Assembly (NCBI GenBank): GCA_965262915.1
Contig: OZ253564.1
Coordinates: 2,464,001-2,528,000 of the forward strand
Source of the DNA: Candidatus Spongiisociaceae bacterium
GTDB taxonomy: Bacteria; Actinomycetota; Acidimicrobiia; Spongiisociales; Spongiisociaceae
DNA: 64,000 bases
Reading direction: 5' to 3'
Below, in pieces: positions 1,028 to 54,165 of the stretch. Under the pieces are notes generated by a model that had not been told where the DNA came from, did not search any database, and saw nothing but the letters and a program-made list of their open reading frames with translations. The position numbers were made by a program, and so were the translations under genes. The stretch's first letter is position 1. Every line of letters starts with the position of its first letter.

Positions 1028-2122
1028 CTAGTGTCCTGATTCGGGGATTCGTTGTAGATAGTTGGTGAGGTTGTCGAAGATTTGGTCGGCGGTTTTGTGC
1101 CAGATGAAGGGTTTGGGGTTTTGGTTCCAGTGTTGGGTCCATTGGTTGATGGCGTCGGTGAGTTCGGCTACGGATCGGTGGGTGCCTCGGCGTATCTGTT
1201 TGGTGGTGAGTTCGGAGAACCATCGCTCGACGAGGTTCATCCACGACGCGTAGGTGGGTGTGAAATGGAACGTGAACCGTGGATGGCGTTGCAGCCAGCG
1301 CCCTATGGGTTCGGTTTTGTGGGGCGACGCGTTGTCCAACACGACATGGACGTCGAGTTCTGGTGGGACTTCGCGGTTGATGAGGTTTAGGAACGTCTGG
1401 AATTTGTGGGTGCGGTTGCGTCGTGTCATGGAGGTGATGACCCGGCCGGTGGCCGTGTCGAGCGCGGCCCCGAGGTTGGTGGTGCCGTACCGGCGGTAGT
1501 CGTGGGTGCGCCGCTGGGGGGTTCCGGGCAACAGGGGCAGGATCGGCGCGGTGCGGTCGAGGGCCTGTATCTGGGATTTGTGGTCCACACACAGCACCAC
1601 CGCCGCGTCGGGCGGGTTCAGGTACAAACCCGCCAGGTCGCGGACCTTTTCCACGAACTGGGGGTCGGGAGATATCTTGAAATGCTCGGTCCGGTGCGGC
1701 TTGAGACCGAACGCCCGCCATATTCTTAGGATCGACGACTGGGACAGGCCCACGGCCCTCGCCATGGACCGGGTCGACCAGTGCGTCGCGTCTCTCGGTG
1801 TTTCCTCCAGCGTCTTGACCACCACTTCTTCTACCTTGGCGTCGTCGATGCGGCGGGGCGGCCCGGGGCGGGGATTGTCGTAGAGGCCGTCGAGACGGCG
1901 CCGGGCGAAACGGTTCCGCCACTTCGAGACCGTAACCCCGCTGCAGCCCACCTCCGCTGCGATGTCCACATTGGTGCGGCCTTCGGCCGCTCCCAGCACG
2001 ATACGAGACCGCATCGCTAACCCTTGTGCGGTGCTACGCCGCCGTATCCACCGCTCCAGCGTCTGGCGTTCCTCTTCATCCAGCTCGATAACCACTGCTT
2101 TACGACTCCGCTGCTTCTCCAT
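1028..2122 (-). CDS. IS630-family transposase
   Basis: HTH N-terminus, HWSTRSMA, VVLDNASPHK, FTPTYASWMNLVERWF motifs. Stop codon lies inside the terminal repeat. Confidence 0.95.
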   Translation of the reverse strand: MEKQRSRKAVVIELDEEERQTLERWIRRRSTAQGLAMRSRIVLGAAEGRTNVDIAAEVGCSGVTVSKWRNRFARRRLDGLYDNPRPGPPRRIDDAKVEEVVVKTLEETPRDATHWSTRSMARAVGLSQSSILRIWRAFGLKPHRTEHFKISPDPQFVEKVRDLAGLYLNPPDAAVVLCVDHKSQIQALDRTAPILPLLPGTPQRRTHDYRRYGTTNLGAALDTATGRVITSMTRRNRTHKFQTFLNLINREVPPELDVHVVLDNASPHKTEPIGRWLQRHPRFTFHFTPTYASWMNLVERWFSELTTKQIRRGTHRSVAELTDAINQWTQHWNQNPKPFIWHKTADQIFDNLTNYLQRIPESGH

Positions 2123-2203
2123 ACGCTGCTCCCACTACTGACTGACACTGACCTGCATATTCTAGCAGCATATGGCAAAGAAACTAAGGAATCAGGACAC
2201 TAG
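1028..2203 (-). mobile_element. IS630-family insertion sequence, complete
   Basis: Perfect 15-bp inverted repeats CTAGTGTCCTGATTC (1028-1042) and GAATCAGGACACTAG (2189-2203), CTAG at both ends, enclosing the transposase. Confidence 0.92.
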
Positions 2204-2271
2204 GACCGGGCGGGGGTACCTGTCCCCCGGACTGGAGTACGCGCATGTGAATACTCTGATATGCTGACTGT

Positions 2272-2927: not shown

Positions 2928-2989
2928 ACTGAACTACCTTCGTTGAGGCTTTGGGCGCTCATCTACCGGCGGTAGGTTTTCTTGTGTCC

Positions 2990-3874
2990 TCAGGGATGTT
3001 GAATCGGTCCTCTGTATGCTGCAATATGGGCGAACGCTCTGTTGCGATGATTCTGTGTAGTAAAGGTCGAACGCTCGAACCCGGCCTCTGAGAATAGTTT
3101 GTATAGTGTCGATGTATCCAGGAAGCTGTTTCTCTCCTGGTTCGCCATGAAAACTGAGATACGGTGGATCAATTCATCATGTCGTAAATCGGATACCTCG
3201 GGCCACCAAGACCGAGCATCGGTGGCCACTTGGTGCCAGCGGTTGATTCTCTGTGCGGTCTGAGCCCCTGAGTTGGAGCCTACCTGATGGAGGCGAACAG
3301 TCGTGAGAACCGCCCCTTTCGGCGACAGCGATTCATACCAGACAGCCAGCAGTTTCTTAAGGTCATTGGTAGGAAACCGAGGGAGAAATGAGTCACTTAC
3401 GATAATGTCATAGAAGGCCGGCCTTTCGTGCTCGATCGCGTTGGCGACCAACAACTCCGGGACAGGTACACCAATATGTCTCGCATACCATGATATCCCC
3501 ATCAGTGGTGTGGCACATAGATCAAGCGCGGTAACCATTCCGGAGTCGGATAGCTGGCTATGTACCAACGCATACATGGAGTAGTCGGCGCAGCCACTGA
3601 TAAGGATCCGCAGTTCGGTTCGATCGGCGCTTTGTTCGGCCATCGCCTTGCGAAAGAACGAAGCATGCCAAGAAGGAGTAGATACAAGATCTAGCAACCG
3701 AAGATACTGCCAGGTGCCATGATACCAATCGCATGATGACTGTCCGCTCTGAGCGCAAGTCCAGTTGGCCACAGTATCCAACCATGTCGCGCTCTGTGCC
3801 AGGGGCTCGGAGATCTCCCCAGCGAGATGTTTCAGGGAATCGGGGTGTCGGAACGCCAAAGTATCAAAGATCAT
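2990..3874 (-). CDS. Class I SAM-dependent methyltransferase-like protein
   Basis: ILISGCADY, VTALDLC, YDIIVSD and SLSPKGAVL motifs. Lower GC than flanks. Start taken at MIFDT; the ORF track extends to 3985. Confidence 0.7.
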   Translation of the reverse strand: MIFDTLAFRHPDSLKHLAGEISEPLAQSATWLDTVANWTCAQSGQSSCDWYHGTWQYLRLLDLVSTPSWHASFFRKAMAEQSADRTELRILISGCADYSMYALVHSQLSDSGMVTALDLCATPLMGISWYARHIGVPVPELLVANAIEHERPAFYDIIVSDSFLPRFPTNDLKKLLAVWYESLSPKGAVLTTVRLHQVGSNSGAQTAQRINRWHQVATDARSWWPEVSDLRHDELIHRISVFMANQERNSFLDTSTLYKLFSEAGFERSTFTTQNHRNRAFAHIAAYRGPIQHP

Positions 3875-4305
3875 AGAGTCGTTCGATCCGAGTTTTTTGG
3901 GAAACCGAGATTCGGAGTGGGTGGGGCCTCGAGTAGCGAGGTCGCGACCTTCATGCAGTTCCCCCTGCCTGGAACCCTTTGCCACCCCAGCAGACGATCA
4001 GGCCGTCGACTCGCAGTCCGAATCAATGGCAACGGTCGGCGGACACCGCCGCGAGATCCTCCGAGGCTGATCGATGCTCCCCTCGACCGCCGACGCGTGC
4101 CCGCGGTTCCACCCCGGTTGAATGGGAGATCTGTTGCGGTTTTCTCCGGACCCATTTCGAGTTGGACGATCTCCGTGAAGCAGACGTCCCAGCGTCGTGG
4201 ATGTAGGTTCCTGGGTGCGAGCGCACAATCGGTCGACAGCGGAATCGATGCGCGTCTCCAGGTGGATCGGTCTGGTATTTATAAGGTTATTATACACTCT
4301 GCTAG

Positions 4306-4336
4306 TTTATACTCACTGAGTGGACCATACTATAGT
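4306..4336 (+). promoter_or_regulatory. Putative MerR-type promoter/operator
   Basis: TTTATA-N19-TATAGT with the dyad ACTCA-C-TGAGT (4311-4321) in the spacer, just upstream of the MerR gene. Confidence 0.35.
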
Positions 4337-4344
4337 GAACCCGC

Positions 4345-5124
4345 GTGACGCAGACAGAATCCGGCAACATCCCCCCTCCAGGCGGCAAGACAGCCGAGAT
4401 GACCATCGACCAGCTTGCCCACGAGGCCGGGATCCCCACCTCGACCGTGCGCCTCTACCAGAACAGAGGGCTGCTCCCTCCCCCACGGCGCCAAGGCCGG
4501 CTGGGCTACTACAACGCCGAGCACCGGGACCGCCTGCGACTGATCGCTCACTTGCAGGAACGGGGGTTCTCGCTGGCTGCGATCAAAGAGACCCTGGACC
4601 ATTGGACCGAGGGCCGCTCCCTCGCCCATCTTTTGGGCGTTAGCCGGATAGCTCCCAGCCTCGAGCGCAAGCCGGTGCGTCTGTCACCCCAGGAGTTCGT
4701 CGAACGATTCGCGGGGATGGACATCACCCAGGAGGACATCCAGCGGGCCGTGCGGATCGGCTTGGTCGAACTCGAAGGCGCGGAGTTGTCGATACCCAAC
4801 GAAGCCTTCATCGATCTCGGCGCCGCCGTAGCGCGAATGGGGATTCCCGTTTCGGAGGTCCTCGACGAGCACGAGGCCCTCATGATCTCCGTCAACGGCA
4901 TCGCCGAGCGATTCCGCGAGGTGTTCCAGCGCCACTTCTGGGAACCGTTCGTCAGCAGGGGCATGCCCGCCGAGGAGATGTCCTCCCTGAGCGCGGCCGT
5001 CAACCAACTCACCGAACTGGCCACCAGCGTCGTGACCGCCGAACTGCACGAGCGTTTCGCAGTCTTCGCTGAGCAGTACCTCGCCCGGGCCGCAGAGTCG
5101 GTCGCCGAAGGACGCGACAACTGA
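4345..5124 (+). CDS. MerR-family transcriptional regulator (intact copy)
   Basis: MTIDQLAHEAGIPTSTVRLYQNRGLLPPP...RLRLIAHLQERGFSLAAIKE. Alternative start at 4399. Confidence 0.9.
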   Translation: MTQTESGNIPPPGGKTAEMTIDQLAHEAGIPTSTVRLYQNRGLLPPPRRQGRLGYYNAEHRDRLRLIAHLQERGFSLAAIKETLDHWTEGRSLAHLLGVSRIAPSLERKPVRLSPQEFVERFAGMDITQEDIQRAVRIGLVELEGAELSIPNEAFIDLGAAVARMGIPVSEVLDEHEALMISVNGIAERFREVFQRHFWEPFVSRGMPAEEMSSLSAAVNQLTELATSVVTAELHERFAVFAEQYLARAAESVAEGRDN

Positions 5125-5160
5125 CCAGCATGGCCAAACCGACATCGGGATCTTCGTGGT

Positions 5161-5355
5161 CTACTCGAAGGAGGTGCTCGCCGGTGCCCAGGTGTCGGGT
5201 CGGATGAATACACCGTTTATGAAGGCTGCTGCTTCGGCTCGGGTGGCGTTGCGGTGGGGGCAGAACAGTTCAGGTCCGCATCCCGGGGCGATCCCGACGA
5301 CGGCTCTCCTCACCCCAGTACCGACCGGTAGTTGCTCTGCCATCGCGAAGCTCAC
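5161..5355 (-). pseudogene. S-layer homology (SLH) domain fragment
   Basis: GIAPGCGPELFCPHRNATRAEAAAFI matches the SLH motif. The upstream part is not in frame. Confidence 0.55.
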
Positions 5356-5836
5356 TCCCCCGTGCGGGATGGGTGGCTCATCGGATCCGGGTGGGGAGTA
5401 CCCGCAGCTGATCCGGGTGGCCCGATGGCCGATGGTACGACCGAGCCGCTGACCCTCCCCGGGTCAGGATCGGTCGTGGAGGTCTATGGCAAGACGCTGC
5501 GGGCATCCGGCGCCGAGTCGGGGGTCGTCGATCCGGTAGAGACCTCGAACGGTGTCCTCTGCGTGCCAGGCCATGCGAACTTATCGGCCCTTCGCGTCCT
5601 GTGGGATGGTGGAGTAGCTGTTGCCGGTGCGCTGTCATGTTAGGAGGAGCCCGCGGGCGGCGTAGATGTGTACCTCGGTATCGGCAGCACATCGAACTGG
5701 CGGGTCTGGTCTCCCAGGTGGAGGTTTGCGTCGAACACCACAGGTGATGGCACAGTTCTGCCTTGGATTCTGTGCAATACTCATGGGGCAATACTCATGG
5801 GTAGGAGAAATAGCAGTTCTTCTCGGGGGTATCTCG

Positions 5837-6073
5837 ATGACACCACTGACCGAAGCCCGGAACCGTTTGAGTGAGATCGTGGACGAGGTGGTCTCCACCG
5901 GCTCCGACCTCGTCATCACGAAACACGGACGGCCTGCAGCCGTGCTCATCGGTTACGAAGAGTACGAAGCTCTTCTCGAGACGCTCAACATCCTCTCCGA
6001 CCCCGAAGCCATGGCAGCCCTGACCGAAGCCGAGCGAGATCTCGCCGCAGGAGACCTGGTGGATCTCACCTGA
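5837..6073 (+). CDS. Phd/YefM antitoxin
   Basis: MTPLTEARNRLSEIVDEV...ITKHGRPAAVL. Confidence 0.88.
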   Translation: MTPLTEARNRLSEIVDEVVSTGSDLVITKHGRPAAVLIGYEEYEALLETLNILSDPEAMAALTEAERDLAAGDLVDLT

Positions 6074-6080
6074 TCTGGCT

Positions 6081-6323
6081 ATGCCCCGGCTAACCCGCCG
6101 CGCTAGGAAGGATCTCGACAGGCTGCCCTCAGCCCTCGCGACCAAGGCATACGAGATCGTCAGACGCCTGGACGACGAGCCTGATCTAGGGAAGAAGCTG
6201 TTGGGGCCGTTGAAAGGCAAGCGTTCGACACGTCTGGGACGGTCTCATCGCATCATCTATACGATTACCGAGGACGGAGTCGTGGTTCTGACAATCGTCG
6301 CAAGGAAGGACGCCTACCGCTGA
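6081..6323 (+). CDS. RelE/ParE toxin
   Basis: RRARKDLDRL...GKKLLGPLKGKRSTRLGRSHRIIY...RKDAYR, directly after the antitoxin. Confidence 0.88.
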   Translation: MPRLTRRARKDLDRLPSALATKAYEIVRRLDDEPDLGKKLLGPLKGKRSTRLGRSHRIIYTITEDGVVVLTIVARKDAYR

Positions 6324-6345
6324 CGGTCTAGCGCCCTCCCGTCGA

Positions 6346-6381
6346 TCACGGAACAAGGATGTGTGGAAGTTTGTAGTCCAT
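6346..6381 (-). pseudogene. Possible N-terminal stub of an S8 peptidase (IetS-like)
   Basis: ATG...TGA reads MDYKLPHILVP directly after the AAA ATPase. Position and the 'PHILV' start resemble ATPase-linked S8 proteases (inference). Confidence 0.35.
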
Positions 6382-6393
6382 CCGCTTGCCCGA

Positions 6394-7372
6394 TCAGTCT
6401 TCGTTGGGGCGCCGCTCTCGGAGTGCCGCCTCTAGAGCACCCGCCGTGATCCTCTTCTCCCCCGCCAACACGATCCGTTTGGCTGCAGCCTCGGCAGCAC
6501 GAACGAGGTCCGCGTGGCTCAGGCCCGCGGTGCAACCGGGCAAGGGCATCCCAATCAACGCCCTTCGTGTCGAGCATCGCAAGCCGATTCCTCATCACGA
6601 CCACCGCTGCATCAGGATCGGGCAGCCGATACTCGACCACCTGGTCGAATCTGCGATAGAGCGCCTTGTCCAACAACCCGGGATGATTCGTCGCCGCCAC
6701 AACCACACTTATCGGGGACGCATGTTCCAGGAATTGAAGGAAGGAGTTGAGCATCCGCCTGGCTTCGCCCACATCGTTGGGCACACCGCGTTCGGCTCCG
6801 AGAGCGTCAAACTCGTCGAACAGGTAGACGGCTCTGGTCGACGCTACCGCATCGAAGACAAGGCGCAGCTGAGCTGCGGTTTCCCCCATGTACTTGCTGA
6901 TCAACACATGGAGCTGGATGGTGAAGAGCGGCAGCTTCAGACCGTGCGCAAGCGCGGCCGCTGACATGCTCTTGCCCGTACCCGGCGGGCCTAGGAGGAG
7001 AACGCGGTGGATGGGGTCAAGACCGTGGGTAGCCAGGAGGTCCGAACGACGCTGTTCCGTCAGAATGCGCTCGAGCTTCGCCCGCAACTCAAGGTCCAAC
7101 GTCATCATGTCCAGGGAGACATCTGGGTAGCTGACCGTCATCAGGCCGGCGAGTTCCCCCCGCGGCTGCACCATTGGCACGGGACGCAATGCTGTGGCCG
7201 CACGTGCCCCCTTCGCAGAATCGATCAGCTCCCGAAGGTCCTGGGCAAACCGATTCTTCCCTTCTCTGGCGGCTCTCGCGGCAACCTGAAGCGCGACGGA
7301 GTAGAAGCCGTCGTCGTCACCTTCCATATGCCGACGGACCAGCGCCTTGAAATGATCAGCGGTGAGTGCCAT
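6394..7372 (-). pseudogene. AAA ATPase (IetA-like), frameshifted near 6535
   Basis: GPPGTGKS Walker A, YLFDEFD Walker B, AATNH...RRFD. The C-terminus GLSHADLVRAAEAA continues in another frame (6394..6582). Confidence 0.8.
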
Positions 7373-7607
7373 GCGCTCCGTTCCCTTCCGGTGCCCCCCG
7401 GCCGCGCCCCACGCATCACGAGCCACTCCGGTCGCACCGACACAGACCGTGGGTTGCACTCGGTTCTCACCATCCTACGCCCACTCGGGCCGCCCGGACC
7501 TCCTATGCTGACGGCCACCCAGTTCAGACATTCCACGACTGGGCTAACGGGACTCGGAGAGCAGGGTTCGCGTGGACGTTTCCTCTCCGGTCAGAAGGAG
7601 CGCCGAG

Positions 7608-7777
7608 ATGACCATCGACCAGCTTGCTCATGAGGCGGGGATTCCCACTTCGACGGTGCGGCTCTACCAGAACAGAGGGCTGCTCCTTCCCTCGCTGCGG
7701 CAGGGCCGGATGGGTTTCTACAACGCCGAGCATCGCGACTGGCTCCGGTTGATCGCTCACCTGCAGGAACGGGGCTT
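7608..7777 (+). pseudogene. MerR regulator, truncated copy 2
   Basis: Near-identical to the gene starting at 4399 up to QERGF, where the MITE begins (CCAG at 7778). Confidence 0.85.
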
Positions 7778-7883
7778 CCAGGAGGGTGGTCAAAATCGCC
7801 TCCACTGCCCGTCGGCCGATGACATAATCCCTGGTCAGCGGGCGACGGGCACCAGCACCCGATCATTTGCACCACCCTCCTAA
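7778..7883. mobile_element. MITE family A (IS1182-like ends)
   Basis: CCAG-GAGGGTGGT ... ACCACCCTC-CTAA inverted ends, ~100 bp, no ORF. Confidence 0.75.
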
Positions 7884-7990
7884 TGTCCCGAATCTCAAGT
7901 TCGTTGTGGTGAATACAGCTTCATCGGACTGCCGCGGCCCCGACCGGACCCCGGTCCTCCCTCTCCAGGTAACCGGCTGCCACACAAGGG

Positions 7991-8019
7991 TTGATCCTGT
8001 CACACCCACGTTGTATAAT
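7991..8019 (+). promoter_or_regulatory. Promoter of RNA cassette copy 1
   Basis: TTGATC-17 bp-TATAAT with TGTCAC 10 nt before the -10 box. Same geometry in all six copies. Confidence 0.75.
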
Positions 8020-8024
8020 GTTTG

Positions 8025-8196
8025 ATAGCCGTATACACCACCGGTTCGCTTCCGACGTCAAGCGGACCGGGGCAGGGATCACAATGCTTCGCGCCGACCC
8101 TCCCCGGGGATGGGGGGAGCGCGCTCGGGGACCGATGGAGGTGGCGGCGGGGGCGGGCCCACGGGAGTGGTCCGTTCGGGCGTTTTTCGCGTTCTC
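8025..8196 (+). ncRNA. Unassigned structured RNA motif, copy 1
   Basis: CACC..., hairpin CCGGTTCGCTT/AAGCGGACCGG with GACGTC loop, GGGATCA, GGAGGTGGCGG, GCGTTTTTCGCG. Confidence 0.65.
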
Positions 8197-8286
8197 GTTG
8201 TTGGGGATCGGGTGGGTGGGTTGCTCAGCCTTGCTTCCGGGTATCTGTAGCGATTTCCTGATTCAGGACACCGGACAACTATAGCG

Positions 8287-8550
8287 TCACCGATCCGAGC
8301 GGCGCCGGTGTTGCTGGTACATGGTCTGTAGGTTGAGCCACAGCTCTGCGCTGGTGCCGAGCGCTTCGGACAAGGACGATGCCGTGTCGGCGGTGATCGG
8401 CTTCTTGGCGTCGAGGATCTCCGATACCACCAGTACGGGCTGGCCAATGATCTCGGCCAACTCGGTGACGGTCCACCCGCGCTCTTCGAGTTCATCGCGC
8501 AGGTACTCACCGGGAGGGAATGCCTCTGCAGTTGTATGGGTCACGGTCAT
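8287..8550 (-). CDS. HigA-like XRE HTH protein (orphan, possibly truncated)
   Basis: FPPGEYLRDELEERGWT..ELA...ITADTA..L...GTSAELWLNLQ. Confidence 0.8.
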   Translation of the reverse strand: MTVTHTTAEAFPPGEYLRDELEERGWTVTELAEIIGQPVLVVSEILDAKKPITADTASSLSEALGTSAELWLNLQTMYQQHRRRSDR

Positions 8551-8637
8551 GGTGTTTACCAGACCCCGCGTTTCCGCGCAGCCTCACTCATTTGACGCGA
8601 GGGTTCACGAACCACGGACCACCCTAGATACAGGTAG

Positions 8638-9891
8638 CTATGGGCCGAGGGCGGTGATCGGTGCCACTTGGACGTTGTCGGGGCGGCGGTAGGCGGGGCC
8701 GGTGGAGGTCACGACCATCAGGGCAGCCAGGTCTTCGACCCGGTGTCTAGCCATCTTGTCCCGTAGCCGGAGCAGGGATCTGGCCGCTTCGTCCACAGTG
8801 TCGGGCGCAGGACTCAGCTTGATCTCGACGGCCAGCCACGCGCCATCGTCCCGTTCGATGATGGCGTCAACTTCGAGGCCGGTGTCGTCGCGGTAGTGGA
8901 ACACGCTCCCCCGATCGGGCTGGCTGTGGATGCGGAGGTCGCGTACGACCAGTGACTCGAACAGGCACGCGAAGGTCTTGGGATCGGCCAGCAGTCGCTC
9001 GGGCGAAGCACGCAGCATCGAGGCGGCAAGTGATGGATCGACGAAGTGGCGCTTGGGAGCCTTGTGCAGGGTAGCCCTGGACCGGAGGCTGGCCGACCAC
9101 GCGGGTTGGTTCTCCACGACGAAGATGCGCTCGAGTGCATCCAAGTAGGCGCCGACAGTGGAACGGCTGAGCCGGGTGTTTCCGCCCGCGTCGGCTACGA
9201 GTGTCGTTGTCTTCGCCTCGGTGGCTACATGGCGGGCCATCGATCGCGTCAGGCGTCTCACCGCGAGCGGATCGTGCCTGACGCCGCTTGCAGAGGGCAC
9301 GTCCACCCGGATGATCTCGTTCACGTAGTCACCGACCGCTAGGCGGGCGTCGAGTTCGTCCAGCTTCAGGCTCCCGGGCCATCCCCCCACACATAGGAAC
9401 GACGCCACATCCCTCAGGCCGATCTCGGGCGGCGGGGCCGACACGGGGCGACCCCCGAACAGGCTCTGCAACGAGACCGCACCCGTAGAGGCACCCATCT
9501 CGTACAGTGACATCGGCCGCATCAATACGCGGCCAATCCGACCCACGCCGGTGTGACGAGTCGTGTCATCCTGCGGAGTTGCTGAGCCCGTGAGGATGAA
9601 GTGCCCGAACCCGACACGATCATCGCACTCCCGGCGCACTCGGTTCCATAGCTGGGGAGCGTTCTGCCACTCGTCGAGCAACCGCGGCGTGTCACCCCGC
9701 AGCACGGCGGCCGGGTCTGCCGCAGCCAGCAGCAGCGTTGCTTCATCATCGAGGCGAGCCTCACTCCGGGCCACGTTGCGCGCTGCCCACGTCTTGCCAC
9801 CTGCCCGGCAACCCTCGATCAAGACCGCTCCACGTCGCCGGAGGGCGCCATCGATCTCACGGTCGGCGACACGCGGGAGATATCCGGGCAT
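8638..9891 (-). CDS. AAA_14 ATP-binding protein with DUF4143 C-terminus
   Basis: YLPRVAD, IEGCRAGGKT, LLDEWQ, FILTGS, GGWP, KRHFVDP, YRDDTGLEVDAI..VEIK. Start taken at MPGYLPR. Confidence 0.9.
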   Translation of the reverse strand: MPGYLPRVADREIDGALRRRGAVLIEGCRAGGKTWAARNVARSEARLDDEATLLLAAADPAAVLRGDTPRLLDEWQNAPQLWNRVRRECDDRVGFGHFILTGSATPQDDTTRHTGVGRIGRVLMRPMSLYEMGASTGAVSLQSLFGGRPVSAPPPEIGLRDVASFLCVGGWPGSLKLDELDARLAVGDYVNEIIRVDVPSASGVRHDPLAVRRLTRSMARHVATEAKTTTLVADAGGNTRLSRSTVGAYLDALERIFVVENQPAWSASLRSRATLHKAPKRHFVDPSLAASMLRASPERLLADPKTFACLFESLVVRDLRIHSQPDRGSVFHYRDDTGLEVDAIIERDDGAWLAVEIKLSPAPDTVDEAARSLLRLRDKMARHRVEDLAALMVVTSTGPAYRRPDNVQVAPITALGP

Positions 9892-9956
9892 CCTGAGCGT
9901 GCGAAGTGCGCTGCCGGCGGGTCTCATGGGACTCGGAACTCCTCCCATCTGGACAC

Positions 9957-10082
9957 TACGTTGGGGAATGCCCCCCATGTCTGGGCGCCCGCCATGACCG
10001 TAGTACATTGCGGGAATTATCCGTAATACATATTGGGAATCCCCTACAACGCGTTACAGGAATGCACTGACGTTCCGGGAAT
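9957..10082. repeat. Degenerate direct repeats upstream of the DUF4143 ATPase
   Basis: TACGTTGGGGAAT (9957), TACATTGCGGGAAT (10004), TACATATTGGGAAT (10027), CGCGTTACAGGAAT (10050), GACGTTCCGGGAAT (10069). The central three are 23 bp apart. Confidence 0.6.
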
Positions 10083-10125
10083 TGGCCGGCGATGTGTTAC
10101 ATGGACTTACACATGCCGGAGAGCT

Positions 10126-10461
10126 TCAGGAGGCCTTCCTCCCCACACGGATCGGGATGCGGTACTCCTCCCCCTCGTTCTCGAACACGGCCAGTATCTG
10201 AAGCCGCGCACCGAGAGGTTCTAGGTATTTGCGGAGTCGTGATACGGTCAGGTCCTGCGCGTTCTCCAACTGCGACACGGCGGCCTGGCTGATTCCGAGT
10301 TCGGCCGCTAGTCCCGACTGGGACCAGTCGAGATGCCTGCGCATCTCGTAGAGCCCTATCTCAGCCAGGGTCTGTTGACCCAGCGCGGCGAGGCGTTCCA
10401 CAGCTCCGGGCCGCGCTATGACTTGTCTGCGCAGTTCCTTGTAGTTCCTGGTGCTCGGCAT
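10126..10461 (-). CDS. XRE HTH antitoxin
   Basis: LYEMRRHLDWSQSGLAAELGISQAAVSQLE...LRKYLEPLG. Confidence 0.85.
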   Translation of the reverse strand: MPSTRNYKELRRQVIARPGAVERLAALGQQTLAEIGLYEMRRHLDWSQSGLAAELGISQAAVSQLENAQDLTVSRLRKYLEPLGARLQILAVFENEGEEYRIPIRVGRKAS

Positions 10462-10464
10462 GTT

Positions 10465-10731
10465 CTATTCATTCCCACTCTGTCTAAGGAGGATGACCTG
10501 CCGTCCTGGGTCAAACGCGAACAGCATCCGCAACGAACCGCCCCCTGCCGATGCACGTAGTTCCCTCATGTTCTGATGACGGGATCCCCTGATAGCGCCA
10601 ACGACGGGACGTCTCAACGCGGGTCCTTGTTCCGCCAGCACCTGGACCCGATCGTCAAGGGCTTCCTGCTGGCCCACGGTGAGCGTGTGTCACCACTCCC
10701 CGAACTCGTTCGTGTACTCAACCTCCCACAA
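10465..10731 (-). pseudogene. RelE/Gp49-like toxin with an in-frame stop
   Basis: WEVEYTNEFGEW*HTL...GPALRRPVVGAIRGSRHQNMRELR..RMLFAFDP. TGA at 10690-10692 and a shortened C-terminus. Confidence 0.8.
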
Positions 10732-10890
10732 AGGGCCGGCCCAGTATAATGGATAGCTTATATCGAATCTTAGGCGAGCTCTGCTCGCAGCGGGCCTGGA
10801 GCCGTCTACCCAGCCACTACTCGACTCCACCGGGAACCACAGCCCGCAAGACTTGTCGAGGAAACGAACCCGTTCGGCAGGGCAGCGGAA

Positions 10891-11615
10891 GTGACCTTCG
10901 ACCAACTCGCATACGAGGCGGGGATTTCCTACTTCGATGGTGCGGCTCTACCAGAACAGAGGACTGCTCCCTCCCCCGCGGCGTGAGGGCCGGATGGGTT
11001 ACTACAACACCGGGCACCGTGACCGTCTGCGGCTGATCGCCCACCTTCAGGAACGGGGATTCTCCCTGGCCGCCATCAAAGAGACCCTGGACCACTGGAC
11101 CGAGGGCCGCTCCCTCGCCCATCTGCTGGGTGTCAGCCAGGTCGCTCCCATCCTCGAGCGCAAGCCCGTGCGTCTGTCACTCGAAGAGTTCGCCGCACGT
11201 TTCGTCGTGGTCGATCACCCAGGAAGACATTCAGCGGGCCGTTCAGATCGGCTTGGTCCAACTCGAAGGTGCGGAGCGGTCGGTATCCAACGAAGCCTTT
11301 ATCGATCTCGGCGCCGCCGTAGCGCGCAGGGGGATCCATGCCTCGGAGATCCTCGACGAACGCGAGGCCCTCAAGATCTCCGTCAACGGTATCGCCGACC
11401 GATTCCGCGAGGTCTTCCAACGCCACTTCTGGGACCCGTTTGTCAGCAAGGGTATGCCCGCCGAAGAGATGCCCTCCCTGACAATGGCCCTCAGCCAACT
11501 CACCGAACTGGCCACCAGCGTCGTGACCGCCGAACTGCACGTACGTTTCGCAGCCTTCGCCGAGCAGTACCTCGCCCGGGCCGCAGAATCGGTCGCCAAG
11601 GGATGCGACAACTGA
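10891..11615 (+). pseudogene. MerR regulator, frameshifted copy 3
   Basis: Colinear with 4399..5124 but with frameshifts near 10925 and 11210. Confidence 0.85.
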
Positions 11616-11709
11616 CAGCCCCGACTTGCCTGAGACCCCCAGGAACCGCGACTCCCTCACCAACCGCGACGCCACCATCGGGGAGGGCACCTACGGATTG
11701 CCACCGTGG

Positions 11710-11889
11710 GGGCCTTGCCGAATGAAGATCCGACAGGTCGCCTCGCAGCGGTTTGCCAACCCGGGGTGGGTTGTCGAGAAGAGGCCCGAGCATGTAGTCC
11801 ACGACTGCAACGGCGACCTTCGCGGGGAGGCGATCGATGGCTCGCCGTGCGGGTCGGGCAACTACCAGACCCGAAGACGCATCGGTCAC
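11710..11889 (-). pseudogene. RelE-like toxin, C-terminally disrupted
   Basis: ARRAIDRLP...LLDNPPRVGKPLRGDLSDLHSAR, then homology is lost (no YRV.Y segment). Confidence 0.7.
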
Positions 11890-12173
11890 GCCCTGCTGCG
11901 GCGAAGTTGGTCGCGGAGCGCTTCTATCTCTTCCCGGGTGGCAACATCACCATCGGCGATGGCAGCACGGCCCATTTCAATAGCTTGTACGGCAGCGGGA
12001 TCGGACAGGATGGCGACGGTCTCTTCGATGGCTTCGAGATCGGCTGTGCTGAGCATCACAGCTACCGGACGACCGTTCCGCGTAACTGTGACTCTCTCAT
12101 GCGTCGTGACGACTTGATCGACGACCTCCGACAGCTTGGCCTTGACTTCTGATAGGGAAAGCACCCTTGACAT
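11886..12173 (-). CDS. Phd/YefM antitoxin
   Basis: MSRVLSLSEVKAKLSEVVD...TRNGRPVAV. TATAAT at 12186-12181, 7 nt before the ATG, suggests a leaderless mRNA. Confidence 0.88.
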   Translation of the reverse strand: MSRVLSLSEVKAKLSEVVDQVVTTHERVTVTRNGRPVAVMLSTADLEAIEETVAILSDPAAVQAIEMGRAAIADGDVATREEIEALRDQLRRSRA

Positions 12174-12211
12174 GACCAGAATTATAGTCTGAGTGCTGTA
12201 CCGAAGGGGGG

Positions 12212-12413
12212 TTGATCCTGTCACACCGATGTCGCACAATGGTAAATAGCCGTAAACACCACCGGTCCGTTGCTGGTACCGATCGGACCGGGGCAGGGAT
12301 CAATCTGTCCGAGCACACCCTCACAGGGGAGGAGAGTTCGCGCTCGGAGCCTCGGAGGTGGCGGTTGGGGAAGGCCCGCGGCAGGGCTACGGCGGGGCGT
12401 TTTTCGCGTTCTC
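12212..12413 (+). ncRNA. RNA cassette copy 2 (promoter plus structured RNA)
   Basis: TTGATC 12212, TGTCAC 12219, CACAAT 12235. AAACACC, CCGGTCCG/CGGACCGG hairpin with GGTACC (12275), GGGATCA, GGAGGTGGCGG, GCGTTTTTCGCG. Confidence 0.65.
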
Positions 12414-12590
12414 GTCGCCCAGCCCGCCATGAGGTAACGGCATTTACCTTCAGGAACCGGCTTGAACAGCAATGCGAGTTTTGGTTGAAGGGCCCTAACG
12501 CCCTGGCCTTGTGAACGCATTCGGTTAGGCGAGAGTCGCGATGTGTGGGTTCGATCAGGACGGCGACCGACCGGATCCCGCCCTCTGATC

Positions 12591-13326: not shown

Positions 13327-13624
13327 GGTTCTCCAACCTTACCGTTGCGCTAGTCACGGCCGACCTTCCCGATCATGGCAAGACGACGGCGGTATGGACG
13401 GACGCAGGAGACACATGGTCGGTAGACGTTCCTATGGCGTCGTGGGTTCATTTCGCGGTTCAGGGCGAATCTCCACGAGGGAGCAGGTCGCAATCGGGTC
13501 AAGCGTGAGCAGGGTGCTTGGTCGATCGGTTCCTCCATGTGGACGCCTACCTGGATCGCGCCATTCGGTGGGATGGCCGGGCTGCTGCCGAGCATCCGGA
13601 TTGTATGTTGGGCGGTGTTAGCGT

Positions 13625-25658: not shown

Positions 25659-25950
25659 TGTCCTGATTCCGGGATCAGTCATGGATACTCGGGACGTGCC
25701 GGCGTTGGCACCGGGCAGGCCTTGGGGGACCGAGAACGCGAAAAACGTGGGACCGGATCCCTCCGACGGGCCCACCCCCGACCGCCACCTCCTCGGTTCC
25801 CGAACGCGTCCCGCCATCCCCTGCGAGGGGTCGGCTCCGACAACATGATCCCTGCCCCGGTCCGGTCGGTACCGCAAGACGGACCGGTGGTGTTTACGGC
25901 TACTTACCATTATGCAACGGGACTGTGACACGTCAATCCTCTTGTGGCGG
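25659..25950 (-). ncRNA. RNA cassette copy 3 with retained IS630-type 3' end
   Basis: TTGACG 25936-31, TGTCAC, CATAAT 25914-09. GGTACC loop at 25868, TTTTTCGCG. TGTCCTGATTC at 25659 is identical to the IS630 TIR. Confidence 0.65.
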
Positions 25951-32584: not shown

Positions 32585-32769
32585 CCCGCAGAGTCAGCCT
32601 GCCTAGCGCTGTGAAGGGTGGGCGCCGGTCCCGTGGGCTGCATGCGCCGGGAGGTGGTGAGTTTCGGCCGATGATCAGAGCCCGGTAGACCAGGAGCCGG
32701 CCATTGGCGAAGGAATGGCTGATTGACGCCGCACTCCACGCTTGCGGGTAATCGCCGAATCCCGCGTCA

Positions 32770-32974
32770 GGTCGCGAAAAACGCGACCGCCGGCTTGTCC
32801 TCCGGGCCCTCCCCCGCCACCACCGTTCCTGAGTTCCGAGCGCGTTCTGCCCGCACCTGGGGGGCTGTCCGGCACCTAGATTCGTGATCCCTCGGGCGGT
32901 CGAAATGACGTCCGGTTCGAGACCGCCGGGTGTTTGACACCAACCAATATGCCACAGGGTTGTGACAGGTTCAA
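32770..32974 (-). ncRNA. RNA cassette copy 4
   Basis: TTGAAC 32974-69, TGTCAC, CATATT. AAACACC, GACGTC loop (32907), GGGATCA, GGTGGTGGCG, GGTCGCG-TTTTT-CGCGACC. Confidence 0.6.
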
Positions 32975-33038
32975 CCCTCTCGAGCGGGCAAGTTCCTCCC
33001 CGGATGGGCTTCCGGCCACCCGAGAGCCGTGTGGCGGG

Positions 33039-50287: not shown

Positions 50288-51802
50288 ATGTCCTCGCCAA
50301 CGCTCGAAGTGCCTCGCAGGGGTCCCAACGTATTGTGGATCTGCACCGATCAGCAGCGCTTCGATACGCTGGGGTGTTACGGCAACCCCTTCGTGAACAC
50401 CCCCAACATCGACCGCCTGGCCGGCCGCGGCGTGCTCTTCACCAACTTCTACACCCAGAGCCCCGTCTGCGCGCCGAGCCGGGCCGGCTTCCTCACCGGC
50501 CGCTACCCACGCACCACCCGTCTCCGGCAGAACGGCACGGCCATCCCGGAGGACGAGGTCCCGGTCACGCGCCTACTGGCGGATGCCGGGTATGTCTGCG
50601 GGCTGGTGGGCAAGCTCCATCTGGGCTGGGATTTCTCCGAATCGGGCGGCGTGGCGGTGACCGAGCGCCGGATCGACGACGGATACAGCTACTTCCATTG
50701 GTCCATGACCTCGTTCCCGGACTGGCGGCTCGGGATCGACCAGGCGCGCACCAACGAATACAGCCACTGGCTGCGGGCCAAGGGCGTCTCCTTCGAGTAC
50801 ACACCCTTCCGGGGATCGAAGTACGTGGAGACCGGCATCGACGCCGAGCACCACCAGACCGCGTGGTGCGCCGAGAAGGCGATCACCTTCATAGAGGCCA
50901 ACGCCCCGTTTGACAACCCGTGGCTGCTCTCCGTCAACCCCTTCGACCCGCACCATCCGTTCGACCCGCCTCGCGAATATCTCGAGCCGTACCTCGACCG
51001 GCTCGACGAAATCCCTCTTCCGAACTACTCGCCGGGCGAACTGCGGGACAAGCCGATCTTCCAGCGGCTCTGCCACGAGGGGGCCTACAACGTTCCGGGC
51101 GCTTTCCGCTTCGACGGCATGGACGGCGAGGACCACCGGCTGATACGCGCCGCCTACTGGGCGATGGTCGACCTGATCGACACGCAGGTTGGGCGGATGG
51201 TGGCGGCCCTGGAGAGGACCGGGCAGCTCGAGGACACGATGATCATCCTGACCTCCGACCACGGCGAGATGCTGGGTGATCACGGCATCTACCTGAAGGG
51301 GCCGTTCTTCTACGAGCCGGCCATACGGGTGCCGTTCATCGTGTCGTGGCCGGCGGCGATCCCTCCGGGCCGCAGGAGCGAGGCGTTGGTGGAGGCAGTC
51401 GACATAGCGCCGACCCTGCTGGACATGGCCGGCCTGCCCCGAGCGCCAGGCATGCAGGGACGGTCCCTATGGCCGCTGCTGAGCGGTGTGGGGGATCTGA
51501 ACCGGCACCGGGACGACGTGTACAGCGAGTACTACAACGCCAGCGTGATGTTCAGCGATCCCGATCCCCTGGCGTTCATGACGATGGTGCGCAGCGAGCG
51601 GTACAAGATCGTCGCCGTGCACGGGCACGAGACCGGAGAACTCTACGACCTGGCCGAGGATCCCGGCGAGACCCGCAACAGTTGGGACGACCCCGCCTAC
51701 CGGGATGTCCGGTTCTCGATGCTCAAGACGCTGGCCGACCGGATTGCGTGGACGGTGGACCCGCTCCCGGTCCGCTCGAAACACCATCCCATGACCTCCT
51801 AG
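50288..51802 (+). CDS. Sulfatase
   Basis: PNVLWICTDQQR, CAPSR, GKLH, PHHP, SDHGEMLGDHG...KG. Confidence 0.95.
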   Translation: MSSPTLEVPRRGPNVLWICTDQQRFDTLGCYGNPFVNTPNIDRLAGRGVLFTNFYTQSPVCAPSRAGFLTGRYPRTTRLRQNGTAIPEDEVPVTRLLADAGYVCGLVGKLHLGWDFSESGGVAVTERRIDDGYSYFHWSMTSFPDWRLGIDQARTNEYSHWLRAKGVSFEYTPFRGSKYVETGIDAEHHQTAWCAEKAITFIEANAPFDNPWLLSVNPFDPHHPFDPPREYLEPYLDRLDEIPLPNYSPGELRDKPIFQRLCHEGAYNVPGAFRFDGMDGEDHRLIRAAYWAMVDLIDTQVGRMVAALERTGQLEDTMIILTSDHGEMLGDHGIYLKGPFFYEPAIRVPFIVSWPAAIPPGRRSEALVEAVDIAPTLLDMAGLPRAPGMQGRSLWPLLSGVGDLNRHRDDVYSEYYNASVMFSDPDPLAFMTMVRSERYKIVAVHGHETGELYDLAEDPGETRNSWDDPAYRDVRFSMLKTLADRIAWTVDPLPVRSKHHPMTS

Positions 51803-53568
51803 GAGGGTGCTGAGCAATCCGTCTGAAGGGGTGCTGCTTGAACCCTGGGATGTGCTGTTGGCTGGTGTGGGTTGGTGGGAGGCTGCCGGTTGGGGGGTGG
51901 TGGTGCTGGTTGTCGGGGTGGAGTTGCCCCGGTTTTTGGGGTTGCCGGTGGGTTTGGTGGTTTAGGTGGGGTTGAGTGCCCAGCCGGTGGTTGTGTGGGT
52001 GAGTCCGAGGTTGATGAGGCGTTGTAGGTTGATGGCTGCTGTTGGGGTGGTGAGCCATTGCTGGTTGGGTTTGATTCCTCGGTGTGGGACACGTCTGGGG
52101 TTGCGGCGGGTGAGCCAGGCGATGGTCCGCTCGACGGACGGCCGGTGGTTCCGGTAGGTGTCCTGCGTTTCTTCTTTGGCCCACCGTGCTTTGTTCGCGG
52201 CGCGACGGTCGTGGTGTTTGTCGACTGCGATGGTCCGTCCACGCTTGGAGGTGGTGCATCGTGCCCGCAGGGGGCAGCCGTTGCACCGCTTGGCGAACGG
52301 GGCGGTACCACCGGGGCGTATGCGGGTGGTGTGCCCGGCGGGACACGTCACCGTCCGGGCTCCGGTGTCGACCTCGAAGTCGTCGCGGTGATAGCCGTCT
52401 TCGATGTGGGGTTTGCGTACGATTGGTTTGGTCACCGGGGTGTGACCAAGATCGTCGAACGTTTCAAGCGCCGCACCGGACGCGTACGCGGAGTCGGCGA
52501 CGATTTCGGCACCCGGGGGTGCTTCGGCAACGAGATCCGCAATGCTGTCGGCGTCTGGGGTGTTGGCAGCGGTTAGGTGGGCGGCGGTGACCAGCCCGGT
52601 TTCGGGTTCGGTAGTCACATGGGCCTTGTACCCGTCCCGTTTGCGGGTCCGGGTCTTGTGACCGTGCCTGGCTTCGGGGTCCACCGTCGATATGGTCCGA
52701 TCTCGGGCCACACGCCGCGCTATCCGCCATCGGCCTTCCCGGTGGGGATCCGGTTCCACATCTTGGCCCGTAACCACTCCCAACAGACCTATTGCGTCGG
52801 CCTGTTCGGGGTTCAGCTTTATGTCCTCCACCCCTTCGATCAGCGCCAGCCCGTCGGTGACCAAACCGTTGATCAGTTCCGATCGGCTGTCGGGATCGGA
52901 CCAGTCACAGGACGGTTTCGCCTTCGATTCGTAGTCATGGGCCACCAGCACCAGGTCGGCTGCCTGCGGGATCAGACGTCGGCAACGCCTTATCTGCGAC
53001 GAGATCATCGTCACCGTGTCCCCGGTAGCAACCGCGTCGTGCAGAATGGTCGAGTCCAACGCACGGCGTCCCCTGTTCGCCAACACCCCACAGGCGGCGA
53101 CCACCTCCCGCACCGCGTCGAAGATACGCTCAGGACGGTCACTCGCCCTAAGCCTCGCTCGCCACAACGTCAGCACCGTCGGGTGGAACCCCCCATCGGT
53201 CAACGACAGACCAGCCGCCGCTTTCCAAGCTATGTCACGACGCAGCCGCTGGACCGCTTCCCGATCCGACAGGCCCTCCAACGCCTGGAGGACCATCACC
53301 GCCCCAATCACCGAGCCCGGTATCGACGGGCGGCCCCGCGGGCCGAACAAATCCCCAAACATCTCAGCGGGAAACAGACGCCGGCGGTGCTCAGCCAAAA
53401 ACTGATACACCGAACCCTCCGGAACCAACTCCCCACACAGTTCCATAGCGTCCAGAAACTCACGATCACCACGTTCACTACCCTGCATACCACCTACAAT
53501 AATCCCAACAAACCCAAAACGCGAACAAGCCAACACCCAACAGACCGACTAAATCAGCAGTCCCCTAG
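51799..53568 (-). mobile_element. IS1182-family insertion sequence
   Basis: CTAG-GAGGGTGCTGA ... TCAGCAGTCCC-CTAG imperfect inverted ends with CTAG duplicated. Inserted at the sulfatase stop codon. Confidence 0.8.
51962..53488 (-). CDS. IS1182-family transposase
   Basis: GRPSIP, LSDREA, LDST, STVDPEARHGHK, GYKAH, ADSAY, CPAG, C.GCPLR..C, RPSVER. Confidence 0.9.
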   Translation of the reverse strand: MQGSERGDREFLDAMELCGELVPEGSVYQFLAEHRRRLFPAEMFGDLFGPRGRPSIPGSVIGAVMVLQALEGLSDREAVQRLRRDIAWKAAAGLSLTDGGFHPTVLTLWRARLRASDRPERIFDAVREVVAACGVLANRGRRALDSTILHDAVATGDTVTMISSQIRRCRRLIPQAADLVLVAHDYESKAKPSCDWSDPDSRSELINGLVTDGLALIEGVEDIKLNPEQADAIGLLGVVTGQDVEPDPHREGRWRIARRVARDRTISTVDPEARHGHKTRTRKRDGYKAHVTTEPETGLVTAAHLTAANTPDADSIADLVAEAPPGAEIVADSAYASGAALETFDDLGHTPVTKPIVRKPHIEDGYHRDDFEVDTGARTVTCPAGHTTRIRPGGTAPFAKRCNGCPLRARCTTSKRGRTIAVDKHHDRRAANKARWAKEETQDTYRNHRPSVERTIAWLTRRNPRRVPHRGIKPNQQWLTTPTAAINLQRLINLGLTHTTTGWALNPT

Positions 53569-53671
53569 GAGGGTGGTCTAAAACGGTGGGGAGCAACGGC
53601 CCGTCTTCCTTTGGACAGGCATAATGTCATCGGTCGACGGGCCGTGAAGGGGTTTTACACCACCCTCCTAG
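53565..53671. mobile_element. MITE family A
   Basis: CTAG-GAGGGTGGT...ACCACCCTC-CTAG. Confidence 0.8.
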
Positions 53672-54054
53672 TCTCCCGACTCGGGAAGCCGTTCCGGATA
53701 CTCGGACTGAACCGTCCTTCCCATGCCGGCAGGACCGAGGGGATCGAGAACGCGAAAAACGCCGGACCGGACCCTGCCGGCGGGCCCTCCCCCAACCGCC
53801 ACCTCCTCGGCTCCGGCCGCGTTCCTCCCTCCCCGAGAGGCTCGGCTTCGACAACAGGATCCCTGGCCCGGTCCGGTCGGTACCGCAACGGACCGGCGGT
53901 GTTTACGGCTACTTACCAGTATGCAACGGGATTGTGATACGGTCAACCCCCTTGTGGCAGCGCGGTCGGTCCGGCGGGGGTTCTTCGGGCGATTCGGCGT
54001 GCCCGCCGTGCGCCGACGCGGGTCCTGGGTACAGCGAACCACAGATTCGGGACA
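53672..54054 (-). mobile_element. IS630-derived element carrying RNA cassette copy 6 (complete, 383 bp)
   Basis: Ends TCTCCCGACTC (53672) and GATTCGGGACA (54044-54054). Colinear with 7884-8270. Confidence 0.75.
53745..53946 (-). ncRNA. RNA cassette copy 6
   Basis: TTGACC 53946-41, TATCAC, CATACT. AAACACC, GGTACC loop (53879), GGGATC, GGAGGTGGCGG, GCGTTTTTCGCG. Confidence 0.65.
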
Positions 54055-54165
54055 CCGGGAGCGTGCTCGGGAACGGATGGGTGATGGGCCCGACGATCGA
54101 TGACAGGATGGCGGCTCAGCGGACGGCGGGCCAACCGTTATCACCGTTCTTCAGTACCCTCCTAG
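54055..54165. mobile_element. MITE family A, diverged
   Basis: CCGG-GAGCGTGCTCGGGAACGG ... CCGTTCTTCAGTACCCTC-CTAG. Confidence 0.6.

Follow-up and report, generated by a model that had tools for sequence, protein, structure and literature searches.

The stretch analysed here, 64,000 nucleotides (nt) from a Candidatus Spongiisociaceae bacterium (GenBank assembly GCA_965262915.1, contig OZ253564.1, positions 2,464,001 to 2,528,000 of the forward strand; hereafter the window), contains exactly six copies of a ~215-nt cassette, as found with nhmmer and in agreement with a covariance model, each comprising a promoter and a predicted RNA. Two of the copies lie inside units bounded by ends of the insertion sequence (IS) family IS630, and an intact IS630 is present in the same window. 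An earlier note on this DNA had proposed that an IS630 relative replaced its transposase with a promoter-RNA cargo and was mobilised in trans; our analysis upheld that some lineages of the cassette were carried in nonautonomous IS630-type elements, but neither the replacement of a transposase nor descent from the IS630 at 1028. On balance, we favored the explanation that the cassette is a damage-induced, probably dimerising RNA gene that owes part of its spread to travel as an IS630 passenger and that was subsequently retained. The features concerned are as follows.

7884..8270, + strand: copy 1, nonautonomous IS630-type unit of 387 nt (left end, spacer, promoter, RNA, spacer, right end), flanked by CTAA and CCGG
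7884..7908, + strand: left IS630-type end of copy 1, TGTCCCGAATC-N4-GTTCG, sharing 80% identity with that of copy 6
7991..8019, + strand: copy 1 promoter by motif comparison, with TTGATC (-35-like, 7991-7996), TGTCAC (PafBC -26-like, 7998-8003), 10 nt and TATAAT (-10 box, 8014-8019)
8027..8196, + strand: predicted RNA of ~170 nt; its putative +1, A8027, is at the base of the long-range helix P1, after which come hairpin P2, the conserved GGGATCA, the variable P3 arm, a linker rich in G, hairpin P5 and TTTTCGCGTTCTC
8054..8059, + strand: self-complementary hexamer GACGTC in the P2 loop, a candidate kissing loop
8246..8270, + strand: right IS630-type end of copy 1, with 23 of the final 30 nt identical to the IS630 right end
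12207..12415, + strand: copy 2, promoter and RNA, loop GGTACC, without IS630 ends
25659..25942, - strand: copy 3, promoter and RNA, loop GGTACC, with an exact right terminal repeat at 25659 and no left end, adjoining an IS1182-type end at 25655
32768..32979, - strand: copy 4, promoter and RNA, without IS630 ends, missing from the syntenic locus L063
34173..34388, + strand: copy 5, promoter and RNA, without IS630 ends, with a counterpart at the same place in L063 and with higher conservation than its flanks
53672..54054, - strand: copy 6, second two-ended IS630-type unit, of 383 nt, loop GGTACC, -26 hexamer TATCAC, flanked by CCGG and CTAG
1032..2199, - strand: autonomous IS630 with an intact transposase of 364 amino acids (1028-2122) and CTAG on both sides, without cassette and without a TGTCAC-N10 promoter

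The earlier note had stated that copies 1 and 6 share a left end and that the right ends resemble that of IS630, and both statements held. Both units have TGTCCCGAATCT as their start, with the TTGA hexamer 107 nt further downstream, and a comparison of their left ends gives 16 identities in 20 nt and 21 in 30 nt; over the terminal 30 nt, identity to the right end of the IS630 amounts to 23 positions in copy 1, 24 in copy 3, and 21 in copy 6, and the exact terminal repeat reported for copy 3 was confirmed. The 11-mer TGTCCTGATTC occurs exactly three times in the window, at both ends of the IS630 and in copy 3 (0.05 expected), and five times with at most one mismatch (0.85 expected), whereas its 16 occurrences at two mismatches are the chance number (15.1 expected); the left ends of copies 1 and 6 (two mismatches) and the right end of copy 6 (three) are therefore not significant by the 11-mer alone. 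We accepted these weak ends because of the longer end motif, their matching positions in both copies, and the occurrence of the same pattern in other genomes. On this basis two of the six window copies have both ends, one has a right end only, and three (copies 2, 4, and 5) have none.

Neither copy 1 (CTAA/CCGG) nor copy 6 (CCGG/CTAG) has an intact CTAG on both sides, and the two units are 66% identical overall, with 80 and 64% in the ends, 73% in the promoter, 76% in the RNA, and 48-51% in the spacers against a baseline of 46%. To judge from this contrast between spacers at background and ends, promoter, and RNA at 64-80% identity, the two-ended units look old. The frames YL*RFPDSGH, EYP*LIPESGH, and EYPERLPESGD*, which had been compared with YLQRIPESGH* of the transposase and read as vestiges of a replaced gene, are indeed present in the letters but are no relic of a transposase gene: the terminal repeat of this IS630 subgroup takes in the final transposase codons. 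The left ends read alike, as QRT*DSGH* in copy 1, QRTTDSGHR in copy 6, and ETKESGH* in the IS itself. No homology was found between the interior of the cassette unit and the IS630 body, and indels in the interior shift the reading frame, so that no transposase gene lies inside the unit.

A pattern scan of genome contigs yielded at least 117 cassette loci from 25 genomes, 80 of them with long flanks (up to 6 kb); at least 16 pattern matches are located on one 3.67-Mb chromosome. By record title, 89 of the listed loci belong to Acidimicrobiia or to Ca. Spongiisocius/Spongiisociaceae and 28 are labelled only "bacterium", several of the latter having orthologous loci among the named ones; Ca. Spongiisociaceae is placed within the class Acidimicrobiia. 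The locus L063 is 82-85% identical to the window over ~11 kb, and by this similarity the window most likely belongs to the same family as these sponge-symbiont genomes. A rebuilt profile gave 135 distinct copies, of which the later analyses used the subsets passing score and flank filters, hence the differing sample sizes. IS630-type ends were searched for with a 28-nt profile trained on seven window ends, at a threshold set to the 99th percentile of random sequence, and by a second search whose distance windows were picked from the data themselves and which was also run at the 95th percentile.

At the 99th percentile, a right end accompanied 16 of 116 non-window copies and a left end 10 of 112, compared with one and one in the opposite orientation; both ends were found in 4 of 110 copies and either end in 19 of 110. 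The distance-window search detected a right end in 28 of 116 and a left end in 10 of 99 copies (controls one and one), both ends in 3 of 97, and either end in 30 of 97, or 45 of 97 at the 95th percentile. Copies with one end only are thus represented by copy 3 and by 15-27 outside copies. CTAG flanks 11 of the 28 right ends, and L037 has CTAG on both sides. Among 44 strong ends in 0.96 Mb of sequence, 30 are within 200 nt of a cassette (five of them the window training ends), and two of the other 14 are those of the window IS630 itself. The earlier note had taken a predominance of end-less copies together with a lack of empty-site alleles as the outcome that would speak against it; most copies indeed have no detectable end, which is half of that outcome, yet inward-facing ends far exceed the controls.

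In a tree of 118 cores, the ends occur in three RNA lineages, with the right end ~+20, ~+45, or ~+79 nt past TTTTCGCG. Copies 1, 3, and 6 fall in the +79 lineage, a group whose branches are not strongly supported, and the relaxed +20 label probably takes in false positives (L021, L031, and L091). In the +45 lineage, many pairwise homologies among the pairs listed end at +42 to +52, which corresponds to the right repeat, and the left boundaries are ragged. We consider it very probable that this observed pattern reflects at least three lineages spread as passengers of nonautonomous IS630-ended elements, which would have been moved in trans by a CTAG-targeting transposase such as that at 1028-2122; copies 1, 3, and 6 would represent one such lineage, and lineages beyond these would have lost their ends or moved by another route.

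The transposase of the window IS630 has an intact frame and scores 266 bits against the IS630 equivalog (cut-off 100). Four related IS630s on Streptomyces, Pseudonocardia, Rhodococcus, and Cupriavidus plasmids, taken from 25 of 1425 plasmid matches, have a common end motif, CTAG followed by TGTC(C/A/G)TGAGTC-N4-5-(A/G)TT (mostly TTCG). By this comparison the cassette ends are firmly of the IS630 type; the element at 1028 is not identifiable as the parent, because the four other IS630s have the same end motif. No IS630 transposase was found in the at least 117 loci listed, and an autonomous IS630 containing the RNA, which the earlier note had advised looking for, was likewise not encountered there, since tblastn over these loci matched only the window's own element.

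These data bear directly on the alternative that the whole family is a deletion derivative of IS630, in which every copy was placed by IS630, the end-less copies are old, and the RNA serves the transposon. Such an origin would accommodate the ends in three separate RNA lineages with their continuum of decay, the concentration of strong IS630-type ends at cassettes, and, if the ancestral wrapper has decayed, the low rate of detection. We nevertheless regard it as unlikely: the youngest clade has no IS630 ends and has a different left boundary, a copy in L029 (at 2441) is bracketed by IS1182-type ends, comparison of the cassette with the transposase gene gave neither homology nor an antisense match (lowest E value 0.093), the loci contain no IS630 transposase while the window IS630 contains neither the RNA nor its promoter, and immobile copies stay conserved. 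A role of the RNA as a regulator of transposition, which the earlier note had also suggested, was not borne out either, the RNA having no significant match to IS630 or IS1182 and the at least 117 loci no IS630 transposase; antisense control of IS630 or IS1182 was rejected for want of a significant match.

Retention of the cassette was addressed with 17 orthologous pairs (two loci used twice), in which the promoter is 87%, the RNA 88%, and the adjacent intergenic DNA 68% identical. RNA identity exceeds identity at fourfold sites in all 13 pairs having such sites (fourfold mean 79%), and the RNA outside the search pattern is 86% identical and above the flanks in 16 of the 17 pairs; across the family, cassette copies average ~61-64% identity. 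Because most of these orthologous copies are without intact ends, the selection does not act on their own mobility. It is probable, as these comparisons directly suggest, that ends and spacers decay after insertion and that promoter and RNA are under purifying selection for a reason other than mobility. Copies favor convergent sites, with 37 of 85 between convergent and 6 of 85 between divergent genes; in 23 of the 85 the cassette and the next gene point the same way, in 60 they are opposed, and in 2 no gene was called, and no recurring protein family was found among 134 neighbouring genes scanned. A riboswitch or 5' leader is unlikely in view of the neighbour orientations and the lack of a recurring neighbour family, and a small protein was rejected, 34 of 36 indels being of 1-2 nt.

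The best-conserved promoter element is TGTCAC, located exactly 10 nt upstream of the -10 box: this spacing gave 119 matches, compared with 6-35 for the other spacings from 7 to 13. TGTCAC is present in 80 of 104 anchored copies (copy 6 has ATC instead of GTC), and its five promoter matches in the window, where 0.39 are expected, are all in cassettes. The cassette promoter, TGTCAC-N10-(T/C)A-N3-T, has PafBC/RecA-NDp geometry, with GTC at -26, a 10-nt spacer, and a SigA -10 box. Among 15 matches to a strict promoter pattern outside cassettes, seven precede genes for DUF222-HNH proteins (4), rmuC (2), or imuA'-imuB (1), and two of these promoters include the palindrome GAAC-N4-GTTC, which resembles the SOS-box consensus. 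In the rmuC genes the ATG lies 7 nt after the -10 box, which is the offset of the base of helix P1 in the cassettes; the putative +1 was therefore placed at A8027. In published descriptions of the PafBC regulon, the consensus is tGTCgg(N10)tA(N3)T and the GTC triplet is conserved across actinobacteria (PMC8635444, PMC8223512). Like the regulon members described (PMC8635444, PMC8223512, PMC6789036), the cassette has the tGTCnn-N10-tA-N3-T geometry, and in related genomes the motif precedes rmuC, imuA'-imuB, and DUF222-HNH genes; unlike them, its predicted transcript is noncoding, multicopy, and mostly preceded by a -35-like TTGA. Since five HNH genes are reported to be mitomycin C-induced in a RecA-dependent manner (PMC8151990), the DUF222 link may reflect LexA as well. 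We think it fairly likely that the cassette promoter is the form which the PafBC/RecA-NDp promoter takes in this host, in many copies supplemented by a -35 element, and that the RNA would be transcribed from A8027 upon DNA damage.

Several further promoters of this kind were noted. DUF222-HNH genes are present at 19-984 of the window and in L010, L013, L044, and L052, and the four with a visible 5' end all have a damage-type promoter with the start close behind it. In L041 (6137-6180), a PafBC-type promoter with an SOS-box-like palindrome precedes imuA'-imuB, 70 nt downstream of a cassette, and in L071 (4690-4830) a truncated cassette is opposed by a second PafBC-type promoter on the other strand.

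Across the family the predicted RNA is ~170-210 nt long. Its fold was assessed on 62 non-redundant standard-length copies (of 80) for helices P1 and P2 and the loop hexamer, the arms P2b, P3, and P5 and a CGCG pseudoknot having been read by eye and left out of the pair counts. In total, 89% of the cells are paired and 13 of 21 pairs show two-sided changes, above every slid control, with the reservation that the relatedness of the copies inflates the shuffle test; phylogeny and misalignment accounted for most of the raw mutual information. The changes in P1 are mainly C-G/U-G, read on the sense strand. Of 60 copies, 51 have a self-complementary hexamer in the P2 loop, or 58 if G-U is allowed, and in a larger set the loop is self-complementary in 86 of 101 copies, compared with 28% of shuffled loops. 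Five forms of the hexamer occur (GACGTC, GGTACC, GGCGCC, CGATCG, and TCCGGA, the last in the L079 variants), and the computed pairing energy is -11 to -13 kcal/mol between like loops and -1 to -4 kcal/mol between unlike ones. Because the innermost bases of the hexamer are unable to pair with each other inside a single hairpin, we infer pairing between two molecules as the simplest reading. We accordingly propose, with reasonable though not strong confidence, that a long-range helix closing from +1 would display the self-complementary loop and that copies with the same hexamer would dimerise by kissing.

Conservation ends abruptly after TTCTC, and a tract of GG repeats and GGGGGAGGG is conserved. 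Rfam 15 gave no match at the gathering score in the window, none at E values of up to 10 for copy 3, and only three chance matches (E 3.3-6.6) in 20 of the at least 117 loci; with copy 3 as query, phage records yielded one 31-nt chance match in one phage and plasmid records none. A literature search of open-licence PubMed Central and bioRxiv texts, supplements not covered, found no description of the element or the RNA. Around the cassettes, TTTTCGCGTTCT is repeated at ~20-23 nt spacing downstream of the cassette in L054, L067, and L071 and at 1930-2130 of L069, in the manner of phased protein-binding sites; a second TTTTCGCG motif lies just upstream of the promoter, inverted in L040, L043, L048, and L057 and direct in L001, L012, L022, and L035. 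Divergent cassettes at 8981-9240 and 11026-11285 of L079 have the terminal motif inverted and a TCCGGA loop.

As to function, we suggest only tentatively that the RNA might serve the host damage response as a trans-acting dimer, either scaffold or decoy, its copy number raising the dose. A number of observations weigh against the explanation as a whole. Concerning spread, IS630 ends are not detectable at most copies, and a pair of them accompanies only 3-4 of ~100; in four groups of 10-14 copies such ends are nearly or entirely missing, and these groups include the one with copies 4 and 5 and the youngest clade, 11 copies in OZ241842.1 with 82-94% pairwise identity, which has none by profile. 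The empty CTAG sites for which the earlier note had proposed to look were not recovered: in a comparison of nine queries whose partner lacked the cassette and had a shorter gap, with six pairs and copy 4 aligned, the cassette was missing at six syntenic sites, which were too diverged for exact junctions and none of which concerned a two-ended copy (L029/L041 turned out to be paralogous, L034/L062 duplicates L043/L062, and L054/L071 was read by eye). Concerning retention, copies were lost or gained between relatives, and a pure dosage effect does not readily account for selection that acts on every one of many copies. Concerning expression, 73 of the 104 copies have TTGA in the 12 nt upstream, while PafBC promoters are described as being without a -35 consensus (PMC8635444); a pafBC gene was not seen in the listed loci with a crude WYL motif scan of 0.96 Mb; a loose promoter pattern was not enriched outside cassettes (33 matches compared with 23-36 in shuffled sequence); and the strict pattern, with its 15 matches compared with 0-11 in shuffles, was written only after matches had been seen. 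Concerning the fold, single-sequence folding is no better than that of shuffles (z = 0.31 for copy 1; means for 35 copies of -0.35 sense and -0.48 antisense), RNAalifold recovered P1 in one run and P2 only in another, and the 3' strand of P1 overlaps the search pattern, which inflates its conservation.

The main rival is that the selected thing is a cis-acting DNA site, where the damage promoter transcribes a G-rich stretch into an R-loop or single-stranded structure beside the protein-binding motif TTTTCGCGTTCT, for example in replication restart or recombination, the RNA being a local intermediate instead of a trans-acting product. Selection on each copy fits such a positional role, as do the ~22-nt phased repeats of TTTTCGCGTTCT downstream of the cassettes in L054, L067, L069, and L071, its direct or inverted occurrence upstream in several copies, its inversion in two L079 variants, the conserved tract of GG repeats and GGGGGAGGG, and the folding energy, which favors neither strand. 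However, P1 starts at the putative +1 and, on the sense strand, shows C-G/U-G changes, and the loop palindrome switches as a whole and tolerates G-U, which suits pairing of strands better than a protein site. We consider this rival improbable.

Less probable again is a scaffold or guide RNA of a selfish ribonucleoprotein encoded elsewhere, for example by dispersed DUF222-HNH nucleases, in the manner of trans-acting omega-RNAs. All four DUF222-HNH genes with their 5' end in the loci have the same promoter type, a feature expected of any damage-induced gene; the sharp stop of conservation after TTCTC and a possible long-range CGCG/CGCG pairing near the 3' end would also suit such an RNA, but the CGCG pair is invariant and hence without covariation support. 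Moreover, no protein family recurs beside the cassette among the 134 neighbours, no cassette lies directly at either end of the DUF222 genes, and the variable segments of copies 1 and 6 have no significant match in the window outside the other copies and their ends. A miniature DUF222-HNH element was likewise unsupported, with one 34-nt match of 76% identity to the window DUF222 gene (E 0.28) and no cassette at DUF222 ends. [quoted passage not shown]

Returning to the favored RNA gene, its vehicle has relatives among known elements. RUP of Streptococcus pneumoniae and Correia/NEMIS of Neisseria are like the cassette units short, multicopy, intergenic, and without transposase, have terminal repeats resembling those of an IS630 of the same genome and a TA-containing target, and often lie beside other IS ends; Correia elements carry promoters, which transcribe the flanking DNA and not the element, and RUP is 107 bp long and highly conserved, with no other motif described (PMC2229807, PMC3184786). 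The cassette units differ in their length of ~330-390 bp, in an interior promoter and structured RNA conserved better than the ends, and in that most copies are end-less. MIC231 of Bacillus cereus likewise has two IS ends without a transposase around a passenger moved in trans, but is described as an IS231/IS4-family element of 0.7-3 kb with protein-coding passengers (PMC6199540). The cassette units are IS630-type, 383-387 bp, and noncoding; with no coding passenger, the cassette unit is not a MIC.

A self-complementary hexamer in a hairpin loop is also known from RNAs that multimerise by kissing loops, such as the retroviral dimer initiation site, OLE, ROOL, and GOLLD. Compared with OLE, ROOL, and GOLLD, the cassette RNA is much shorter, has no Rfam match, and occurs in dispersed copies with transposon ends. 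The omega-RNA/reRNA of IscB and TnpB and the IS110 bridge RNA are similar in size, with their own promoter and a link to mobile DNA; the cassette differs in its IS630-type ends and in the lack of an adjoining nuclease or recombinase gene, no IscB, TnpB, or IS110 gene having been found next to a cassette among 134 neighbours, 11 further proteins, and the window copies, and no guide-target match for the variable segments of copies 1 and 6 within the window. A 2019 study noted that no mycobacterial small RNA had been linked to the damage response (PMC6789036).

IS630-type MITEs and passenger-carrying mini-transposons are already known, with passengers that, in the descriptions cited, are protein genes and MITE interiors that are poor in motifs or act on neighbours; what would be new here is a complete RNA gene as a passenger outliving its vehicle, with transposon amplification and subsequent retention both traceable, and a promoter through which a structured RNA of no assigned class is linked to the PafBC damage response of actinobacteria. 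It is conceivable, though rather doubtful, that the family represents a new class of bacterial noncoding RNA that is switched by PafBC, self-assembles through interchangeable palindromic kissing loops, and was amplified through IS630 and other nonautonomous transposons before being domesticated copy by copy. Such a class would resemble stress-induced RNAs of the short interspersed element (SINE) type, here spread by DNA transposition. If the RNA were untranscribed or inert, what is left would be a decayed MITE family of some age, from a sponge symbiont not in culture, and its interest would be modest.

Apart from IS630, elements of the IS1182 type surround the cassettes of the window.

51802..53564, - strand: autonomous IS1182, transposase at 51962-53536
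7781..7880, no strand assigned: IS1182-type MITE with ends GGAGGGTG, adjoining the left end of copy 1 and following a truncated merR fragment (7572-7779)
53568..53668, no strand assigned: IS1182-type MITE between copy 6 and the IS1182
54059..54163, no strand assigned: IS1182-type MITE on the other side of copy 6

The autonomous IS1182 likely drives this family of ~100-bp MITEs with IS1182 GGAGGGTG ends; copies 1, 3, and 6 all adjoin such ends, forming nests of CTAG-targeting elements, and CTAG is under-represented both in the window (52 compared with 87 expected) and in the loci listed (628 compared with 1188). IS1182-type ends rarely adjoin outside cassettes (upstream in 0 of 109, downstream in 4 of 116). 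At ~2300-2710 of L029, the cassette copy lies between inward-facing IS1182-type ends, not IS630 ends. In the youngest clade, which has among its members L011, L028, L039, L060, L076, L086, L090, L091, and L105, the left boundary follows an AT-rich (T)AAAT and precedes a short hairpin, and the 3' tails are ragged and repeat the -35 region. Positions 8115-8138 (the P3 arm of copy 1) and 54057-54080 (an IS1182-type MITE end) are alike at 21 of 24 nt (E 0.023), probably by chance. Repeats of a third family, ~165 bp long, bounded by GTGGTC(T/C)GTCTG and likely another MITE, lie beside CTAG in the window (17545-17708, 58021-58189, 59198-59268, and 47217-47293) and also occur in L009, L010, L045, and L075; shorter, internally deleted copies occur.

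In the window, toxin-antitoxin-type and defence-like genes (PIN, Phd/YefM, helix-turn-helix (HTH) antitoxins, nucleotidyltransferase modules, and AAA-DUF4143) are dense at 2260-13330 and 26001-27151, and a Schlafen/AlbA_2 gene at 14053-16059 belongs to the same defence-like patch. Three related merR copies are located at 4345, 7572 (truncated), and 10928. The block at 24062-27196, where copy 3 lies together with a flavin oxidoreductase and an HTH-nucleotidyltransferase pair, has no counterpart in the syntenic L063, and a 21-nt tandem repeat is present at 39878-39961 within a solute-binding protein gene.

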